The notes under the pieces are model-generated. The model saw nothing but the letters and a program-made list of their open reading frames with translations. It did not search any database and was not told where the DNA came from. This document shows, in pieces, positions 6,733 to 56,650 of a stretch of DNA of 64,000 nucleotides. Positions within the stretch are counted from its first letter, which is position 1. Each line of letters begins with the position of its first letter. This DNA is from a virus (lineage: Duplodnaviria > Heunggongvirae > Uroviricota > Caudoviricetes): IMG/VR virus record IMGVR_UViG_2681813318_000003, one strand, 5' to 3'. The position numbers and the translations under genes are program-made.

Positions 6733-7326
6733 CTAAGCAGCCTTCTTTGATGGTCTTTTTTTCCTGATCACATTCGCAGGATCATACCCTCCCAGACTTT
6801 TCATGACGTCCAAAGGGATCTTGCTTATAGAGTGCCCAGCGTCCTGACAGAATCCTCGAAAAACAACGAGCATACTGCCACCGGGGTTGATGTTTACTTC
6901 TACCTGACCCAAATTGACGTCAGGCTCGACAAACGCTACGCGGCCACCAGACAGAATAATCGTCTCATTCGCACACTCTGTTGCACGCTCATACCACTTT
7001 GTATCGAGGGATTGAGGAATTAGCATCACTGTTGTAACTCCGCGAGCCTGCTCACGTATAGCCGCATCAATCCAGGGGGAGATTTTGGAGTAGGGTGGAT
7101 TGAGGAAGGCAATTGTACCTGGCTGTCCCCATTCAGATTTCAAAGCATCACGCTCAACGCCTATGAAAATAGGCAGCTTTGCGTTGTCCTTGTTGCAGGC
7201 AACGTCAACATCAAATGTCACTCCAAGATAACGTTGAATGGCAGAAAACAGCCAATCAGGTGTTCTCCAGAGGTCACGAAGAGAGTTGTCGCGCTTTCGC
7301 TGTTTGATTTTTTCGGCTGCAATCAT
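6733..7326 (-). CDS. phage-type DNA N6-adenine methyltransferase (Dam-like)
   Basis: 197 aa with N-terminal WRTP and central NPPY motifs typical of the small phage Dam family. Confidence 0.75.
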   Translation of the reverse strand: MIAAEKIKQRKRDNSLRDLWRTPDWLFSAIQRYLGVTFDVDVACNKDNAKLPIFIGVERDALKSEWGQPGTIAFLNPPYSKISPWIDAAIREQARGVTTVMLIPQSLDTKWYERATECANETIILSGGRVAFVEPDVNLGQVEVNINPGGSMLVVFRGFCQDAGHSISKIPLDVMKSLGGYDPANVIRKKRPSKKAA

Positions 7327-22187: not shown

Positions 22188-22841
22188 TTAAATCGTGTCG
22201 GAGGGCTTTTTACGCGCGTTACGCGCTGCGTTTATGCTTATGACGCCAGCTTTTGGACGTGGGTCAACAAGGTTAAGCTCTTCTTCACTGTGGTATTCGA
22301 GGTCGAACTCACGTTTTACATGTCTGATGTAGATTGCGGTGAGCAGGCTATCTTTGGTTAGGAAGTGTCCGTAGGATTTGCGGATCACTTCTTCTACCTT
22401 CTCGATTTTCTCACCCCCCATACAGAGATGATTAAACCGGCTGTGTTTTCGCAACATTTCGTCTACTGGACCTGAGTAAACCTTGTCTACTTTCCCAAAA
22501 CGGATGATTTTCCCTGTGTCTGCGGATACAAGGCAAATCAGCTTGTCTGGTGATAAACGATCTCGCCACGTCACACCTGAACGGAGTGTGTTGAAGTAGG
22601 GGGCATCCAATCCGATGATCGGTTTACGAAATGCGAGCAATGGAACGTACCTGATGCAACTGTTTAAATGAAAATTCACACCAGCCTTATCAAGTTTAAT
22701 TCTGGTTTCGTAGATCGGGCACTTCGCCGCTATACCGCAGATGTCACAAAGCAACTTCTGCTTATTCAGGTTGGAATTTGATTCGATAGTGTAGGAGCCG
22801 TCTTCAAGACGACGAACCCAGCGCGTGCGTTTTAGATCCAT
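22188..22841 (-). CDS. hypothetical protein
   Basis: 217-aa ORF, no motif recognised. Confidence 0.45.
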   Translation of the reverse strand: MDLKRTRWVRRLEDGSYTIESNSNLNKQKLLCDICGIAAKCPIYETRIKLDKAGVNFHLNSCIRYVPLLAFRKPIIGLDAPYFNTLRSGVTWRDRLSPDKLICLVSADTGKIIRFGKVDKVYSGPVDEMLRKHSRFNHLCMGGEKIEKVEEVIRKSYGHFLTKDSLLTAIYIRHVKREFDLEYHSEEELNLVDPRPKAGVISINAARNARKKPSDTI

Positions 22842-22919
22842 ATGTCATTTTTCTGTGATTGTTAGCCGAGGCAACGATAACCCACCAGGTGCGCCGAAGG
22901 TAGTAAATGCCTGTTTTAA

Positions 22920-23000
22920 TTATTCACATATCCACAGGATAGATCCTAATAAAGAGATCCATAGATAGATCCTTGTATAGATCAAATAAGATCCCCGATC
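22920..23000. promoter_or_regulatory. origin-like region: two DnaA-box-like 9-mers and six clustered GATC sites
   Basis: TTATTCACA (22920-22928) and ATATCCACA (22928-22936); GATC at 22942, 22956, 22968, 22980, 22990 and 22997. Confidence 0.7.
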
Positions 23001-23041
23001 GCTGTAAGCCGCGCCACGACTGGTCTGAAGCCATGTTCATG

Positions 23042-23142
23042 TATGCTACCAGCGGTAATTGATAGTCTGTCAACGGTTCGCCGTATGCTGCCAACTGTTT
23101 TTGGTATGCTGCCAGCGGCAAATCAAGTATGCTGTCAGCGGT
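23042..23142. repeat. five iterons (TATGCTRYCAGCGGT-like) upstream of repA
   Basis: Copies start at 23042, 23064, 23084, 23105 and 23128, spaced 20-23 bp. Confidence 0.8.
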
Positions 23143-23162
23143 TGAATGACAAAGGTGTCCAC

Positions 23163-24257
23163 ATGTCCACAAAAAATAAAAAAGGTAAAAATAACAAAGA
23201 AGTAGAAGATAATCTCGACAACTTTGAAGAAGGTTCCCTTGAATTGTACACAGGGGAACTTGTCCCTAATAGCAACAATACAGTCCAACCAATTGCGTTG
23301 ATGCGGCTGGGGTTGTTCGTGCCCACGCTCAAGGGGACAAAATACAGCAAGCGTAACAAGCCAAATGAGATCGATGCTTCAAAGGAGCTTGTTCAGCTCG
23401 AAGTAGCCCGTTCTGAAGGTTATTCCGATATCAAGATAACCGGTCCTCGTCTCGACATGGATCATGATTTCAAAACGTGGGTGGGCGTTGTGCGTTCGCT
23501 GGCAGAATACGGCGAACCTAACGGTCGTGTCGAGTTAAGCATCACGAAATTTGCGAAGTTTTGTGGCTATCCATCGTCACAGATCCGCAAAACACTCCGC
23601 GACCGGCTTACAAACAGTCTTTTGAAGATCATGCGTACAACTCTGTCTTTTCAGAGAACGTATGAAGAAAAGAACGTCGACGGCTCTAACAAGATCTCGC
23701 TTCTGATGGTGCACCTCATCAATAGCGTGGACTACAACGAGCAGAAAGATACGGTGGTGTTCTATGCAGAACCGAAGCTGGCCGAACTATATCGCTTTGA
23801 CCATAAGGTTCTTTTGCAGTTAAAGGTTATCAATAAGCTACCACGCAAAGAAACAGCACAGGCTCTGTACACCTTCATCGAAAGTCTTCCAACCAAGCCT
23901 GCGCCGGTATCGCTTGCTCGATTACGTGCGCGACTCAATTTGAGTAGCAGGAATGTCAGCTCGCAGAATCAGACTATACGTAACGGCTTAAAAGCTCTCC
24001 AAGATTTGGGCTATCTCGAATACAGCGAGATTAAGCGAGGGCGGTCGATCTATATCCAGATTCACAGCCGCAATCCAAAACTCAAAGTCGCACCGCCAAA
24101 ACCTGAAGACATCGAACCCAAAAAACCAGATGAGAAAGCTGGGGAAATTGATGCCAAACAGAACATTATCAACAAGATAACCGAACTTTCGCAGAATTTG
24201 ACGCCTGAAAATATCAAGATGATTGAGATCCTTTCCAATAGTCTCAAACTGCTTTGA
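23163..24257 (+). CDS. repA: iteron-type plasmid replication initiator
   Basis: Flanked on both sides by iterons; start moved to ATG 23163 (AAAGGTG upstream) because the first 40 codons of the track ORF are iteron DNA. Confidence 0.75.
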   Translation: MSTKNKKGKNNKEVEDNLDNFEEGSLELYTGELVPNSNNTVQPIALMRLGLFVPTLKGTKYSKRNKPNEIDASKELVQLEVARSEGYSDIKITGPRLDMDHDFKTWVGVVRSLAEYGEPNGRVELSITKFAKFCGYPSSQIRKTLRDRLTNSLLKIMRTTLSFQRTYEEKNVDGSNKISLLMVHLINSVDYNEQKDTVVFYAEPKLAELYRFDHKVLLQLKVINKLPRKETAQALYTFIESLPTKPAPVSLARLRARLNLSSRNVSSQNQTIRNGLKALQDLGYLEYSEIKRGRSIYIQIHSRNPKLKVAPPKPEDIEPKKPDEKAGEIDAKQNIINKITELSQNLTPENIKMIEILSNSLKLL

Positions 24258-24374
24258 TATGCTGTCAGCGGTGAAATGTATGCTATCAGCGGCTATTTTT
24301 CTGAAAAGTATGCTGTGAACGGTTAAAGATATGCTACCAGCGGTATAGTGAGATAAACGTATGCTGTGAGCGGT
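24258..24374. repeat. five iterons immediately downstream of the repA stop
   Basis: TATGCT[GA][TC][CG]A[GA]CGG[TC] at 24258, 24279, 24309, 24330 and 24360. Confidence 0.85.
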
Positions 24375-24535
24375 AAATCATCTATCACCACTCAATGCTC
24401 TGGCATACCTCCCCAGTGGTTACTAACCTCGAAGAGTGCATTCCATATAGGTTTGCGCTCACTAACATTCTATTGCCGTTGCGCTGATTGCTTGTAGTGA
24501 AAGGCATTTATTGCCTGCTGCTCCCTGATAGAACG

Positions 24536-24789
24536 TATGCTGTCAGCGGTGTTTTATTGAGGAATTTTTGTTTGGATATGCTATCAGCGGTAATTAATGG
24601 TATATGTCAGACCTTCGTATGCTGCCAGCGGTAATTTTGTTCTGGTTATAACCATACCGGTACACATTATTCATGCAATGTCTTAAGTATGCTGTCAGCG
24701 GTAAAAAATCGAGTAAAGTATGCTGTGAGCGGTGAGATAAACTCTCGATATGCTATCAGCGGTAATTGATTGTGTATGCTGTCAGCGGT
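24536..24789. repeat. seven more iterons (second downstream cluster)
   Basis: Copies at 24536, 24577, 24618, 24688, 24719, 24749 and 24775. Confidence 0.85.
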
Positions 24790-24806
24790 GACGACTATGA
24801 AATATG

Positions 24807-24828
24807 ACTGCGGCACGTGCCGCAGTCA
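24807..24828. other. perfect 22-bp palindrome GACTGCGGCACGTGCCGCAGTC
   Basis: Lies between the iteron array and the convergent gene ending at 24837; possible bidirectional terminator or binding site. Confidence 0.5.
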
Positions 24829-24836
24829 GTTTGCAT

Positions 24837-25049
24837 TTAGTGTATTTTCTTTAACAGACCCCAAAGTGTTCCGGCTTTTGTAGTCAGTTTTCCTGTTTCT
24901 GGATCGTACATACGCCATTCACGCCGCTGGTGGACGATATACCCATCTTCACGTTCCAGACGCTCAAGAATGCCAGGCTGCTTGAAACCCTTAGCACGCC
25001 AGTAGCCGCTTGTTTTCTCGATTTCCAGACCTGCCAGTGTTAATGCCAT
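24837..25049 (-). CDS. hypothetical protein
   Basis: 70-aa ORF. Confidence 0.4.
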   Translation of the reverse strand: MALTLAGLEIEKTSGYWRAKGFKQPGILERLEREDGYIVHQRREWRMYDPETGKLTTKAGTLWGLLKKIH

Positions 25050-25384
25050 TATCCAACCTCCTTGCAGTCATCGAAAAGGTAGCTTTGCTGAGAAGCGTGA
25101 ACGCCATAGAAGCCCTTGTATTTGTTGTATACGAAGTGGTCTTCTCCGACGCCGGTTAATTTGCCATTACGGTTTGTGAGATATGGGGATGACAATACTC
25201 GATCGTCACGCACTACATAGAACTGGTCGCCGCTGTCTACGACCATCGCGCCATATGGTGCTTTTATGACGTCGGTAAAAGCGCCATTCTTAATGTCGGC
25301 TACAGACATTTCACACTGATAAACAGTGGTGTCGGCCACAACGATCGAAGAAAGGAACAACAAAGCGAATGGGATGGCCTTCAT
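25049..25384 (-). CDS. secreted hypothetical protein
   Basis: N-terminal signal-peptide-like MKAIPFALLFLSSIVVA. Confidence 0.5.
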   Translation of the reverse strand: MKAIPFALLFLSSIVVADTTVYQCEMSVADIKNGAFTDVIKAPYGAMVVDSGDQFYVVRDDRVLSSPYLTNRNGKLTGVGEDHFVYNKYKGFYGVHASQQSYLFDDCKEVG

Positions 25385-49457: not shown

Positions 49458-49689
49458 GTTGGCTTCCCTTTATTTATATTTATTGCAGGTATTAGTTAAT
49501 CAAAACACGAGCAGTGCCACAATAATTAAATGGCGTACTATTTCTTATGGTTATTAGTTTCCCGGTAACTTTACCGACCATAAACTAAATCAACAAAGCT
49601 GACATATTAACTAAATTTAAGTACCCTTTTCGCACACTTGACGCTTGCCGCGTCTAAACTGTTCATCCTATATCAACAGAACAAAAAAT

Positions 49690-50835
49690 ATGAAATACAT
49701 AAAATCTTCATCGTTGCTGGCATTAACTTTGCTTTTTAGCTCTGGATTCGTTAACGCAGACAATAAACAAACGCTGATAGAAGCCGCTAACGCAGGGAAT
49801 ACCGCAGCACAAAGTGAGTTAGGGACAAATTATTTTGATGGTATCAATGGTTTTGATAAGGATGTAGTTGAGGCCAAGAAGTGGATTGATCTAGCTGCAG
49901 AAAAGGGAGATAAAGTAGCATATTATGCACTTGGAGTTATGTACACATTTGGCGAGGGTGTAGATAAAGACCTAAATAAAGCTGTTGAGTACTACAAACT
50001 TGCGGGGGACGCTCGTGAAGGTAGAGCCTACAACAATCTTGGTGCTATTTATCAAAAGGGGATGCTTGGTAAAGTAGATCATGCACTCGCCATTAAATAC
50101 TTCAAACTAGCCTCTGATGCCGGGTATGTTAAAGCAACTTCAGTTCTTGGGGCGTATTACCAATATGGTGAAGGCGTTCAAAAGAATTATAAAAAGGCTT
50201 TTGCTTATTACAAAAAAGCGGCGGATCAAGGTAGTTCAGATGGTATGTTCGCATTAGGCACCTTATACGATGATGGTTTAGGTGTTAAACGAAACGATGC
50301 CGAAGCAATTAAGTGGTATAAAAAAGCTGCTGAACTCGGAAACGTCGATGCCATGACAAATCTTGGCATTATGTATGAGAATGGCGAGGGTGTTAAAAAG
50401 GATTATAAAAAAGCAGCCGATTTTTATCAGGCCGCTTGCGATAAAGGAGATAAAAGCGGCTGTAAATACATTGCAGAACTGAAAGAAAGCGGCAAATATC
50501 GAGCGCCGGCTTCCAAAGCCAAAACAAAATCCGCCACCCAGCGACTTATTGCTAAATCCATTGATAAGGGCGTTAACGCTACATTTACCTGGCAGGGTGA
50601 TGATGCTACCTTCACCGCTAATGATGGCAAAGTTGACTGCACCTTCCTGAAGGATTTTTCAGAGAAAGGAGGCAATCTGGCTACCTCGTTTGTTTGCACC
50701 GATAACGTTCAAATCATCCTGAAGCAATTCAGAGATACCAAAAATGCCTACCTCGCGGTAATGACTGACAACTTCAATACTGAAGTTAAATCATTTTCGG
50801 TCAATGTGTATGTGACTAATACTGGTTCAAACTAA
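49690..50835 (+). CDS. secreted Sel1-like repeat protein
   Basis: Signal peptide MKYIKSSSLLALTLLFSSGFVNA followed by ~7 Sel1-type repeats (A..W..KAA..G........LG.MY..G.GV..D); start moved to ATG 49690. Confidence 0.7.
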   Translation: MKYIKSSSLLALTLLFSSGFVNADNKQTLIEAANAGNTAAQSELGTNYFDGINGFDKDVVEAKKWIDLAAEKGDKVAYYALGVMYTFGEGVDKDLNKAVEYYKLAGDAREGRAYNNLGAIYQKGMLGKVDHALAIKYFKLASDAGYVKATSVLGAYYQYGEGVQKNYKKAFAYYKKAADQGSSDGMFALGTLYDDGLGVKRNDAEAIKWYKKAAELGNVDAMTNLGIMYENGEGVKKDYKKAADFYQAACDKGDKSGCKYIAELKESGKYRAPASKAKTKSATQRLIAKSIDKGVNATFTWQGDDATFTANDGKVDCTFLKDFSEKGGNLATSFVCTDNVQIILKQFRDTKNAYLAVMTDNFNTEVKSFSVNVYVTNTGSN

Positions 50836-52008
50836 TGCAGCTATGCCTTTTACCTTGCTTAAAAGTTCAAGCTGTCGTGAGTAAGGTTTTGCGCAATAGT
50901 AGGCTTTGATAATCTGCCCCGGGGTCGCATCGCCGGGGTCTAGTCCTTCCTCGCCCAAACATGCAATTTTCACATTAAGACCGATACTGGTCAGTCGCCT
51001 GGCTGCGGCCATAGTGTTTCGTATAGCTTGCTTTTCACTATCCCACATCATGATCACATTACGTAATCCACGCGTCTTGAGCGTCAGGAACGCGCCTAAC
51101 TGATCTTCTGCATCCTGAGTGGTGTTGCCAGATAGATGCATCCCGAACGTTCCTATTGGTTCCACATAATCACGTAATGTTTCTTCGTCAAAAATAGCTC
51201 GTTTGACCCCCATAACATCGAACGCCCCCTCACAGACAACTACAGTCTGTTTGCCGACTGCATTATGGCCGTTGTAGAGAAACTTACCTGAAGCTGGAAG
51301 CTGCATAGGAAAGAGGTAGCGGCGTTCTGCTGTACCGGTAATGTCTCGTCCCTGAAATGTCTTCATTACCCCATCCAGATCGTAAACCGGTATCAGTATT
51401 CGCATATCGAATATCTGTCCTTTAACCTGATCTGTATACGGATCTACATAGGCGTGCTTGCCTTCGACGCAGTATCGTAGGTCAAAATACTTTGCCATTT
51501 CAGGCGATATGTTTCGTTCAACCAGATAGTCTGGAAGACGGCCATCTATAGGAAGTTCGTAATGACGAGGGAGTGCAAGTGGTCCCTCTAACTCGACTGT
51601 GCTTGCAAGCACTATCTCTTCTTTCTTTGGTGCCCACCCCTGGGAAAGAAGAGCGTTCTGCACATATTCCTCGAACTGTCGTCGTGATTTACCGCTGTAG
51701 TGCTTGAGGAAGACCAGCTTATTGAACTGAATCTCTTCGGGATGATCACCAGCGAAGCATTTGCCGACGCCACTGGTCAGATTGAAATATACCTTCCAGT
51801 TGGAGCTGCCGCATACCGGACATTCCTTGATATTCACTTCACGACCGCGAGCACTCACGCCTCCACGTCGATAAACGATACCTTCAGTGTCCAACCATTG
51901 TTCAAAATCTAATTCGGTAATTAGCTCTTTCAGCTCGCTCACGATAATTCCACTTTTAACAGGCAATATTGTGACCAACCTAAATGTTGATATAACATAA
52001 AGGCTCAT
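50827..52008 (-). CDS. DnaG-like DNA primase
   Basis: Zinc finger CPVCGSS...C..DH and TOPRIM (VVVCEGAFDVMG, MWDSE); start moved to ATG 52006-52008 with the conserved leader. Confidence 0.75.
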   Translation of the reverse strand: MSLYVISTFRLVTILPVKSGIIVSELKELITELDFEQWLDTEGIVYRRGGVSARGREVNIKECPVCGSSNWKVYFNLTSGVGKCFAGDHPEEIQFNKLVFLKHYSGKSRRQFEEYVQNALLSQGWAPKKEEIVLASTVELEGPLALPRHYELPIDGRLPDYLVERNISPEMAKYFDLRYCVEGKHAYVDPYTDQVKGQIFDMRILIPVYDLDGVMKTFQGRDITGTAERRYLFPMQLPASGKFLYNGHNAVGKQTVVVCEGAFDVMGVKRAIFDEETLRDYVEPIGTFGMHLSGNTTQDAEDQLGAFLTLKTRGLRNVIMMWDSEKQAIRNTMAAARRLTSIGLNVKIACLGEEGLDPGDATPGQIIKAYYCAKPYSRQLELLSKVKGIAALV

Positions 52009-52089
52009 GTGTTTTTCTTTTGTGGTTTGGCAAAAGAAAAGTTGTTTCACCAATGAATCAAGCGTGGAGGTGTTCTCCACGCTTATTTT

Positions 52090-53430
52090 TTAGGTAACGT
52101 CTAAGATCCGCTCAATGAAGCGCATTTGTTCGAGGTTTTGTTTAACACGAATGCTGATCCCTCCCTGCTGGTTACGTGAACCAGCAAAGTAGAGACGAGC
52201 CTCTCCTTTCGCTTCTTCTTCTTCGGTTTTGTTGATCGTTATTACCAGGTCAGCAATACGTACTTTTTCGATGTTGTCGGCGGCGTGCATCATTGTGGCA
52301 ACTTCTGACGCGCCACCTTCACGGTTTGTCTGCGATGCCGTGATTCCAGCAACGTTATGTTTGTCATAAAGAGCACGTAAATCGGTGTAGATACTACGAA
52401 TGTTGGCGCGATCATCACGAAGGTCATAACTGGCACGCATCAAATCTGCGTAGTCGACAACAAGCATGTCAGGCACCATGCCATTGGCTTTCATACTGTT
52501 AAGCATACGGTCCAGATCTGCCGGTGACATACTTCCTGACGGACGCTCAACCACCCACAAACTACCAATCCCCTTCGTGGCTCCCAACTCTGCCAACTTA
52601 CGATGAACCTCATCGCGCCGTTCCACCAGCTTGGACATTTCTGTCTCCGACAATCTTGCATCAAAACGGTCGGATAAAATGGTGGTGTGAACCTCCAGCG
52701 AAAGATACAGAACATTGTAGCCAGCAAGCGTTGCATTTATGGAAAATTCACCCATTGCGGTCGATTTACCGGATTTAGCGAACCCCATGAAGAGCACCAT
52801 TTCACGCTTCGCCCAGCCTTTTTGGTACAGCAACCTATCGAGCAGAGGGAGTCCAGTTGTAATGCTGTTTGGCACATACTCCTCTGAAGCCTCATATTCA
52901 CGCGCTTTCAATCGCTCACTTGCGGAGGTGTAGTAGTCATAGATTCCGGTCGCTTCGTTCGATCCAATCTGCTGAACCTTGGCCATGATTGCCATCGCCC
53001 CCTGAAAGTCGCCTTTCTCTTTCAGTTCAGCAGCCTTAATCAGAGCATCATCAAACGCTACACTTTTTGCGAAGGTTGATACCTGGTCAACCATGTACGA
53101 GGTATCGGACAATTTTTCTGCAAGAATGCGCTTAAACGCAGCAACAACATCGGCGAATAGTTCCTCACGGATAGTCTTATCGCGTTTCGCACGCTTAAGC
53201 ATATCCAGAATTGCAGATGAAGAGGGCGCGCTCTTGTACATACGGTAATAGCCCGAAACCATATTAACCAATATGGCATTGGCCGCATTGGCAAATTGGC
53301 TAGGCACAACCAGATCTCCCGCACGAGTAAGAAACTCGTGATCACGACAAAAATATGCCGTCAGTCTGTTCTGGAAATCTTCATCAAACTCTTCGGACAG
53401 CCCGCGTCCTGTATGGCAAAGTTCTGTCAT
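52090..53430 (-). CDS. DnaB-like replicative helicase
   Basis: RecA-fold C-terminal domain with Walker A GFAKSGKST and Walker B LVVDYADL. Confidence 0.75.
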   Translation of the reverse strand: MTELCHTGRGLSEEFDEDFQNRLTAYFCRDHEFLTRAGDLVVPSQFANAANAILVNMVSGYYRMYKSAPSSSAILDMLKRAKRDKTIREELFADVVAAFKRILAEKLSDTSYMVDQVSTFAKSVAFDDALIKAAELKEKGDFQGAMAIMAKVQQIGSNEATGIYDYYTSASERLKAREYEASEEYVPNSITTGLPLLDRLLYQKGWAKREMVLFMGFAKSGKSTAMGEFSINATLAGYNVLYLSLEVHTTILSDRFDARLSETEMSKLVERRDEVHRKLAELGATKGIGSLWVVERPSGSMSPADLDRMLNSMKANGMVPDMLVVDYADLMRASYDLRDDRANIRSIYTDLRALYDKHNVAGITASQTNREGGASEVATMMHAADNIEKVRIADLVITINKTEEEEAKGEARLYFAGSRNQQGGISIRVKQNLEQMRFIERILDVT

Positions 53431-55622: not shown

Positions 55623-55982
55623 TCAACCTTTCTTCATTAACTCGCGTTTAATTTCATCGGTACGCATCGTGACATCGGCAGCAGTGATCGCCTCGTTAAG
55701 CTTCACGATGTCCTCGATTTCCTGCGGTGACTTCTCTGCCAGATGGAAAATGGCTGCTCGAATCACGTCAGAACGAGTGAACTTCTCGAAGCGAGGGATG
55801 AACTTCATCATCTCCAGCAGTTCGAAGTATTCGTCTTCCAGTGACATTGTGCGGCTTTTAATTTTCTCTTTGCCACGAGTCGGGCGTCCCTGTGGTCTGA
55901 CTGGTTGGCGCAAAGGAGTTGTGTTCTTAGCCGGTGCATCAGGCTCTTTGCGCTTTGCTAGGTCACCCATTTTCATGGACAT
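55623..55982 (-). CDS. putative partition protein (small ParB/ParG-like partner of ParA)
   Basis: 119-aa basic/acidic protein immediately downstream of parA; assignment by position only. Confidence 0.45.
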   Translation of the reverse strand: MSMKMGDLAKRKEPDAPAKNTTPLRQPVRPQGRPTRGKEKIKSRTMSLEDEYFELLEMMKFIPRFEKFTRSDVIRAAIFHLAEKSPQEIEDIVKLNEAITAADVTMRTDEIKRELMKKG

Positions 55983-56650
55983 TATTCTTCTTCCTCCAGA
56001 CTCAACAGATAATCTACAAATTCTTCAAACTCGGCTTCCGCCTTTTTGTCGCGCTCGCTACCGGTCATTTCAAAGATAGAACGACCAGACTCTTCCGCAT
56101 CATCATAGACGTTGCGGTTATATAGATTGACTGGCGCAGACTCGATGCCAAACGTCTCAACAATCTCTTTAGCCGCCAGAATGCGAGACACTTGTGATGG
56201 CAAAGCCGGGCACTGGTTCATGACCGCGCGGACCTTCACTTTATCGTTTACATTACGAACATTGTCGATAATAGGATCAATGTCACGCAGAGATTTCAAA
56301 TCACGACGCTTAGGACGAAGCGGGATAATGATAACGTCGGCCATCAGCATCGCTTGTCGCTGAATTTCGGAGTCAAAGCCACCAGCATCTACCACTACAA
56401 ACTCAGCTCTACCCTGAAGCGATTTTAGGTGCTTAATGATGTCATCCTGAACGTATGCAAAAGGAATCAGCTCAAGGTCTTCGTTCTGTCGACGGTCTTC
56501 ACACCAGCTTGTTGTCGTGCGCTGAATATCTATATCAGTGATATAAACCTTCTTCTTCTTTTTGACTTTCAGGCAAACGGCAATTTGCTGGGCAACGGTG
56601 GATTTGCCAGGCCCGCCCTTTGTGCCGCCAACCACAAAGATCTTGGTCAT
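55982..56650 (-). CDS. parA: ParA-family partition ATPase
   Basis: Deviant Walker A GGTKGGPGKST; 222 aa. Confidence 0.85.
   Translation of the reverse strand: MTKIFVVGGTKGGPGKSTVAQQIAVCLKVKKKKKVYITDIDIQRTTTSWCEDRRQNEDLELIPFAYVQDDIIKHLKSLQGRAEFVVVDAGGFDSEIQRQAMLMADVIIIPLRPKRRDLKSLRDIDPIIDNVRNVNDKVKVRAVMNQCPALPSQVSRILAAKEIVETFGIESAPVNLYNRNVYDDAEESGRSIFEMTGSERDKKAEAEFEEFVDYLLSLEEEE

Follow-up and report, generated by a model that had tools for sequence, protein, structure and literature searches.

The DNA analysed here is a stretch of 64,000 nucleotides from a virus of the Caudoviricetes (IMG/VR record IMGVR_UViG_2681813318_000003), which is referred to in its full length as the window. At positions 22920-24828 it contains a region laid out like a plasmid replicon: two DnaA boxes, a cluster of GATC sites, a GC-rich spacer and five direct repeats (iterons) precede the gene repA, and twelve more iterons and a palindrome follow it. 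The two genes next to this replicon encode counterparts of SSU5_070 (85% protein identity) and SSU5_068 (94%), and the surrounding genes form an SSU5-type module; thus, the window is an SSU5-like Escherichia coli phage-plasmid. In pEC881_2, the annotated counterpart, the replicon is surrounded by nrdAB, thyA, dfr, an SbcCD-like gene pair, RecA, dnaE, ligase, CobT and integrase genes, and the window also encodes a DnaB-like helicase, a primase and a tail-fibre gene. The replicon and its immediate boundary consist of the following features:

22920-22936, plus strand: two overlapping DnaA boxes, TTATTCACA and ATATCCACA, at the outer edge of the origin
22938-23003, plus strand: AT-rich segment of 36% GC, comprising six GATC sites in five AGATC(C/A) heptamers and one CGATCG
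23008-23023, plus strand: GC-rich spacer, GCCGCGCCACGACTGG, between the heptamers and the iterons
23042-23142, plus strand: five direct origin iterons (starts at 23042, 23063, 23084, 23105 and 23128), the counterpart of P1 incC
23163-24257, plus strand: repA, encoding a Rep_3-family initiator of 364 amino acids, a putative iteron-binding protein (Pfam Rep3_N, BLASTP, tblastn)
24258-24374, plus strand: control array, cluster 1, five direct iterons spaced 21/30/21/30 bp
24375-24535, no strand assigned: non-iteron spacer of 161 bp that splits the array
24536-24789, plus strand: control array, cluster 2, seven direct iterons spaced 41/41/70/31/30/26 bp
24805-24828, no strand assigned: perfect palindrome of 24 bp, a terminator-like hairpin at the boundary between the iteron array and a converging minus-strand operon

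Organization of the Replicon

Iterons were counted over the whole 64-kb window as matches to the core TATGCTGTCAGCGGT with at most three mismatches, and the chance level was taken from 100 dinucleotide-preserving shuffles. There are 18 matches against 1.57 expected, a number reached by none of the 100 shuffles, and 17 of them lie within 23042-24789, every one on the plus strand. The five origin iterons follow one another at start-to-start distances of 21/21/21/23 bp. At the outer edge, TTATTCACA at 22920 is an exact DnaA box, one of five exact consensus matches on both strands of the window, and ATATCCACA at 22928, which overlaps it by one base, has a single mismatch. The GATC sites, starting at 22942, 22956, 22968, 22980, 22990 and 22997, span 59 bp and make up the densest cluster in the window (the runner-up has three sites, and the background is 4.2 per kb). 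The segment 22938-23003 that holds them is presumed to be the region of Dam-dependent unwinding and of sequestration by SeqA.

On the other side of the gene, the first downstream iteron starts on the base directly after the repA stop codon (TGA, 24255-24257). The iterons of cluster 1 start at 24258, 24279, 24309, 24330 and 24360, and those of cluster 2 at 24536, 24577, 24618, 24688, 24719, 24749 and 24775. Their cores have zero to two mismatches, which is better than some of the origin iterons, and the spacings of the array (21, 30-31 and 41 bp) are mainly whole helical turns, likewise in P1 incA. A preliminary description of this DNA had listed two DnaA-box-like 9-mers upstream of repA, six GATC sites within 60 bp, five upstream iterons at a regular distance of about 21 bp and twelve downstream iterons in groups of five and seven beginning at the repA stop codon; all of these elements are present where it had placed them, one of the two boxes being exact and the other differing at one position.

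The Initiator Protein RepA

RepA matches the Pfam family Rep3_N with an E-value of 3.9e-9 (37.5 bits against a cutoff of 22.4). In BLASTP comparisons it is 46% identical to P1 RepA over the entire P1 protein (E 4e-86), 52% identical to RepA from the RepFIB replicon of a conjugative plasmid (IncFIA/FIB; E 1e-112), 49% identical to SSU5 RepA (E 2e-106) and 85-88% identical to the RepA proteins of Klebsiella and Cronobacter phage-plasmids (E 0). Homologues at about 50% identity occur in at least 5,000 plasmid records, and in a large protein database the protein belongs to a tight clade (at least 78% identity) encoded on contigs of about 105-115 kb. Since searches against PDB sequences and NCBIfam gave no match, the classification of RepA rests on Pfam, BLASTP and tblastn. 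By these comparisons RepA is judged a genuine homologue of plasmid initiators, and a search against plasmid Rep families, which the preliminary description had suggested, has in this way found the initiator relationship.

An alignment of the RepA family shows a conserved core at about residues 31-307, with a variable N-terminal leader before it and a variable linker and short C-terminal helix after it. The C-terminal tail is common to the RepFIB proteins and is lacking in P1 RepA. Pfam recognizes only the WH1 half of the protein. An AlphaFold2 model has a mean pLDDT of 70, with values of about 75-92 in the core at about residues 70-300 and a dip to 50-68 near residues 210-240. The best PDB matches of this model are the iteron initiators RctB, RepE, a WH1 domain, Pi and TrfA, with probabilities of up to 1.0 and TM-scores of just 0.4-0.5; the closest structural match would be to domains 2-3 of Vibrio cholerae RctB, a much larger protein that has no detectable sequence homology to RepA.

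Two start sites have to be weighed. RefSeq annotates a RepB/RepA protein of 404 amino acids (L001, 6194-7408), whose ATG lies in the first origin iteron and which thus includes an extension encoded by 23043-23162 of the window, whereas the 364-residue frame starts at 23163 behind a Shine-Dalgarno-like AAAGG motif. The motif AAAGGTNTC(C/A)ACATG at the 23163 start is conserved in Klebsiella and Cronobacter, and in Cronobacter the repA frame cannot be extended to any upstream ATG. These two observations favour the shorter frame over the longer one, and a RepA product of 364 amino acids starting at 23163 is therefore the better supported prediction.

Homology to the P1 Replicon and the RepFIB Plan

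In P1, for which the annotation in GenBank K02380 is based on experiments, the DnaA site lies at 729-746, the Dam sites at 751-801, the incC iterons at 846-949, repA at 1006-1866 and incA at 1866-2150. Like the window, P1 has tandem DnaA boxes, GATC heptamers, a GC-rich spacer, five direct iterons about 21 bp apart, repA and a control array, and incA begins at the end of repA (K02380, 1866) just as the array of the window begins at the stop codon. When the origin of the window (22905-23165) was aligned with those of P1 (K02380) and Klebsiella pJN2-26, the DnaA boxes, the AGATCC heptamers and the GC-rich GCCGCGCCACGnCTGG spacer matched P1 oriR column by column; the spacer is almost unchanged among the three and is found also in Cronobacter. 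Similarity to P1 falls off where the iterons start, the iteron being TATGCTGTCAGCGGT in the window and ATGTGTGCTGGAGGGAAA in P1. This division suggests that the host-interacting part of the origin has been conserved and that the initiator-specific part has diverged along with RepA, and on the alignment the resemblance to P1 is best described as homology, not mere analogy.

The two replicons also differ. RepA of the window has 364 amino acids against 286 in P1, with about 30 extra residues at the N-terminus and a C-terminal tail of 55 residues. Three further DnaA boxes on the repA side of P1 have no good match in the window, where the only candidate is a site with two mismatches at the repA start. 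In P1 the genes parA and parB and the site parS come directly after incA, a position taken in the window by converging minus-strand hypothetical genes. Both hosts are phage-plasmids, but the SSU5-like phage backbone of the window is unrelated to that of P1.

Outside the phage-plasmids the closest relative of RepA is the RepFIB protein (52%), which has the C-terminal tail in common with it. The IncF RepFIB plasmid follows the same plan as the window, with a GATC cluster, then iterons, repA and more iterons, although its iterons are of the ACATAAnCTGTnG type, unlike TATGCTGTCAGCGGT, and RepFIB usually resides in conjugative multi-replicon plasmids whereas the present replicon resides in a phage genome. 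The origin-plus-control-locus layout of P1/RepFIB-type replicons, which the preliminary description had recognized in this region, is hence borne out by the homology of RepA, the alignment with oriR at the DNA level and the order of the parts. A more distant comparison is V. cholerae ori2, an iteron origin with a DnaA box, dependence on Dam sites and control by handcuffing (PMC6090056). Unlike the window, ori2 has 39-mers and crtS for its control, and the GATC sites are located within its iterons.

A plasmid of 105 kb from E. coli (NZ_CP124469.1, 104512-104642) matches the region, at 77% identity, in nothing but its first 130 bp, where the DnaA boxes and GATC heptamers are. Such a match is what one would expect if the half of the origin that interacts with the host were shared and had been joined to another type of RepA and iterons.

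Occurrence in Phage-Plasmids

The 2-kb replicon region is 95-99% identical in about 120 plasmids, mostly of 100-128 kb and non-mobilizable, from E. coli, E. albertii, Shigella and Salmonella, and it is 98.4% identical in the records of Escherichia phage PhiR41_1 and "phage CMS-2020a". Among 5,426 complete E. coli genomes it is present in 120; plasmids account for all 185 places where it was found, and chromosomes for none. MOB-suite assigns such plasmids this replicon alone (rep_cluster_488). That the element exists as a plasmid, as the preliminary description had proposed from the replicon and parA, is consistent with this exclusively plasmid location, to which the phage record PhiR41_1 adds the phage side.

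Phage-plasmids of the SSU5 group are extrachromosomal and are typed as IncFIB (PMC7969092; bioRxiv 10.1101/2025.09.12.675607). In the literature on this group, RepA, parA, parB and dam have been named in pECOH89 (PMC7969092; PMC3999498; bioRxiv 10.1101/2025.09.12.675607), and the present type of RepA was described as early as 2014 as different from that of pLF82/SSU5, the RepA proteins of pECOH89 and pLF82 being 48% identical (PMC3999498). The values obtained here for RepA of the window against the Cyrano and SSU5 proteins (48-49%) are in line with the published one. The replicon of SSU5, pHCM2 and pLF82 (Cyrano) lies at an identical place in the genome, with the same pair of genes on either side, and SSU5 has the same plan of DnaA boxes, GATC sites, iterons, repA and iterons. 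Its iterons, however, are of the TAWCCACTGTAGWGAG type, its downstream iterons occur in both orientations and an origin-like module is duplicated upstream, neither of which is seen in the window. The two elements are thus related by a swap of replicon specificity within a conserved backbone.

In SSU5 itself, two tandem origin-like modules precede repA (L004, 2260-2500 and 2640-2900). Both comprise five iterons, GATC-type heptamers and a DnaA-box-like site, but most of the GATC sites of the second module have decayed to GAACC or GACCC. In the GenBank record of Klebsiella phage pJN2-26, the 20-bp attR and attL (L005, 2753-2772 and 4023-4042) are actually an origin iteron and a control iteron, and these labels are probably an artefact of a prophage-finding tool. 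Plasmids of about 62-64 kb from E. albertii (NZ_CP034165.1, CP043239.1 and relatives) carry the replicon at 99.2% identity and probably arose by deletion, with some of the phage genome missing. Were this the case, they would show, as a natural experiment, that no complete phage is needed for the replicon to maintain a plasmid.

A different assignment would make the region the origin of the lytic phage cycle, alone or in addition to a role in lysogenic plasmid maintenance. The replicon sits in a block of DNA-metabolism genes (SbcCD-like genes, RecA, dnaE, nrdAB, DnaB-like helicase and primase), and no second origin, lytic or other, was identified in the window. On the other hand, the design is a copy-limiting one, with a Rep_3 initiator, control iterons and GATC sites for sequestration, all of them homologous to P1 oriR. 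In P1, oriR is the plasmid origin and the lytic replicon is separate. The same RepA family, moreover, drives thousands of IncFIB plasmids that are not phages, and we consider a lytic origin very unlikely, the region being better understood as an origin for plasmid maintenance.

Conservation of the Origin and Variation of the Array

The origin does not vary among the relatives compared: PhiR41_1, Cronobacter pH322_1 and two elements from Klebsiella all have two DnaA boxes, five iterons at 21/21/21/23 bp and six GATC sites. Each of the boxes is exact in Cronobacter pH322_1, and in Klebsiella each differs at one position. The number of downstream iterons, in comparison, varies, even among nearly identical E. 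coli replicons, as follows:

window and four sampled plasmids of E. coli and E. albertii: 12
E. coli p4_0.2: 13, with one extra unit of 26 bp (L010, 1976-2002)
phage PhiR41_1: 9, the last three copies being gone (L002, 4061-4092)
Salmonella pSAN1-1735: 10
Cronobacter pH322_1: 11
Klebsiella elements: 8-9

The loss in PhiR41_1 is a deletion of 87 bp between two identical iterons. In NZ_CP062914.1 (L014, 1332-2712) the spacer between the clusters contains an IS91-family element, whose transposase gene lies just past the break. An invariant origin next to an array that is preserved with variable copy number fits an essential origin combined with an adjustable copy-control locus, as P1 incA would suggest.

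Proposed Mechanism of Replication

We read 22920-24789 as the plasmid-prophage replicon of an SSU5-like E. coli phage-plasmid that belongs to the P1 oriR/RepFIB iteron family and would work as P1 does, and assign this reading a probability of about 0.88; the homology, the anatomy, the pattern of conservation and the exclusively plasmid location are direct observations. An outline of the process modelled on P1 is as follows: initially, RepA monomers would bind the five phased iterons of the origin, and host DnaA would bind the two boxes at its outer edge. The Dam-methylated, AT-rich GATC heptamers would then melt, which would allow loading of host DnaB. After initiation, the hemimethylated GATC sites would be sequestered so that the origin does not fire again immediately. 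RepA probably limits its own synthesis by repressing its promoter, which would lie in or near the iterons. In the manner of P1 incA, the twelve iterons downstream would titrate RepA and handcuff the origin through RepA bridges and would thereby keep the copy number low, and the distant ParA system would segregate the copies. The protein-DNA contacts, the dependence on Dam and DnaA, the handcuffing and the copy number in this outline are all borrowed from P1.

Several points weigh against this reading. The literature that was read contains no experiments on the replicon. Origin iterons 2 and 3 are degenerate, with three mismatches apiece; a consensus scan of the plus strand found no sigma-70-like promoter for repA, and the -35 and -10 hexamers of P1 are not conserved at the aligned positions of the window, so that autoregulation is a putative feature. 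The element has its own genes for helicase, primase and the alpha subunit of DNA polymerase III (Pol III), making dependence on the host replisome an assumption. There are also departures from incA: the twelve control iterons of the window are all direct and fall into two clusters, whereas P1 has nine, three direct and six inverted, and the array is split by a 161-bp non-iteron spacer with a conserved core, unlike that of P1. Finally, the spacer interrupted by the IS91-family element suggests that the second cluster may be dispensable or independent of position.

The two degenerate iterons and the missing consensus promoter could be expected of a decaying remnant, in which case some other, unrecognised replicon would maintain the element. 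This is scarcely credible, because more than 100 circular plasmids carry an intact repA that is 99-100% conserved, and the replicon is the sole type assigned to them. The degenerate iterons, in addition, occupy the same positions in the relatives, and such recurrence indicates a conserved feature rather than decay.

A further alternative concerns the downstream repeats, which could have arisen as neutral duplications, serve as an auxiliary origin or enhancer, or store RepA without effect on copy number. Their number drifts between 9 and 13 among close relatives, the IS91-family insertion in the spacer is tolerated and all of them are direct, unlike those of P1 incA. Nevertheless, the cores are kept at zero to two mismatches with spacings that are mostly whole helical turns, and arrays of 8-12 copies that begin at the repA stop codon have been retained in four genera despite diverged spacers. 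The homologous incA of P1, furthermore, is an experimentally defined control locus. A function other than negative control therefore appears unlikely, and the array is provisionally regarded as the counterpart of incA.

The Spacer and the Palindrome

The core of the 161-bp spacer (24411-24467) is an imperfect inverted repeat of 57 bp, in which CCCCAGTGGTTACTAACC and GGTTTGCGCTCACTAAC are separated by 22 nucleotides. It is kept in the replicons of Escherichia, Salmonella, Cronobacter and Klebsiella, and the flanking spacer DNA has diverged. The motif has no additional copy elsewhere in the window, a scan detected no promoter-like site in 24375-24535, and an Rfam scan of 22500-25200 at E <= 1 returned no match. 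As for a structured RNA, RNAalifold gave a weak hairpin on either strand with essentially zero covariation. The part at 24407-24428 was considered as a relic of an SSU5-type iteron and rejected, as the 16-mer has four mismatches and eight such chance matches occur in the window. Tentatively, 24411-24467 may be a separate cis-regulatory site at which a phage or host protein modulates handcuffing by RepA and so couples copy control in the plasmid mode to the state of lysogeny or lysis, with expansion and contraction of the array by recombination tuning the copy number; we hold this for rather doubtful. Were it true, changes in the length of the iteron array could lead to, for example, gene-dosage heteroresistance.

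The palindrome GACTGCGGCACGTGCCGCAGTC at 24806-24827 is perfect and extends to 24 bp. A scan rates it as terminator-like on both strands, with RNA folding z-scores of -4.7 and -4.1. It lies directly past the stop codon of the converging minus-strand gene 24837-25049, has one mismatch near the loop in the closest relatives and is replaced at the same position in Cronobacter by a different hairpin with a stem of 13 bp. Since the hairpin rather than the sequence is kept and since it follows the stop codon of the converging gene, a terminator is favoured over a replicon-specific binding site. Most likely, it stops transcription of the converging minus-strand operon from entering the array, which would shield the array. 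The preliminary description was thus right about the perfect palindrome, but its inclusion in the replicon is better replaced by a terminator-like hairpin that serves the converging operon.

Relation to Known Replicons

Replicons of this kind have been described before, and typing routinely assigns them to IncFIB; identical or near-identical sequences have been deposited by the hundreds and annotated as plasmid replication initiator, this type of RepA already serves in plasmid typing, the architecture is that of P1 oriR and RepFIB, and no new mechanism is revealed. A literature search combining SSU5 or phage-plasmid with iterons found no paper on the cis-anatomy of this origin. What is provided here are exact coordinates for the DnaA boxes, the Dam heptamers, the iterons and the control array, a corrected start of repA and the recognition of iterons that are mislabelled as att sites elsewhere, an annotation of use in curating records, typing replicons and designing mini-replicons. 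The replicon matters in that it sets how widespread phage-plasmids of E. coli, Shigella and Salmonella persist at low copy number and which of them can coexist, and some members of the family carry CTX-M-15 and other resistance genes.

Partition, Methyltransferase and Replication Genes

Two further features of the window may bear on plasmid maintenance:

55623-56650, minus strand: partition locus, consisting of a gene for a ParA-like ATPase (55982-56650, 222 amino acids) and a small downstream open reading frame (55623-55982, 119 amino acids)
6733-7326, minus strand: phage-type N6-adenine DNA methyltransferase of the Dam family (Pfam PF05869 Dam, E 1.7e-37; NCBIfam phage_N6A_met, above cutoff)

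The ParA-like protein matches the Pfam families MipZ, AAA_31, CbiA and ParA, and NCBIfam ParA_partition with an E-value of 1.9e-33 that is under the curated cutoff. The 119-residue reading frame has no family match in Pfam or NCBIfam, and a search around parA for centromere-like repeats gave nothing convincing. The preliminary description had grouped parA with the replicon; a ParA-like gene does exist and is the only one in the window, but it is 31 kb from the replicon, not adjacent to it as in P1.

P1 carries its own adenine methyltransferase, and so does the window. The predicted Dam-family enzyme could free the GATC-rich origin from host Dam. The element also encodes a DnaB-like helicase and a Toprim primase (50827-53430, minus strand) and a Pol III alpha subunit (dnaE homologue; L006, 33555-37073), all presumably for lytic replication. 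Adjoining the primase-helicase genes, on the strand opposite to that of its neighbours, is a gene for a Sel1/TPR-repeat protein of 396 amino acids (49645-50835, plus strand; Pfam Sel1, E 5.5e-54), which is an unusual cargo for a phage replication module.

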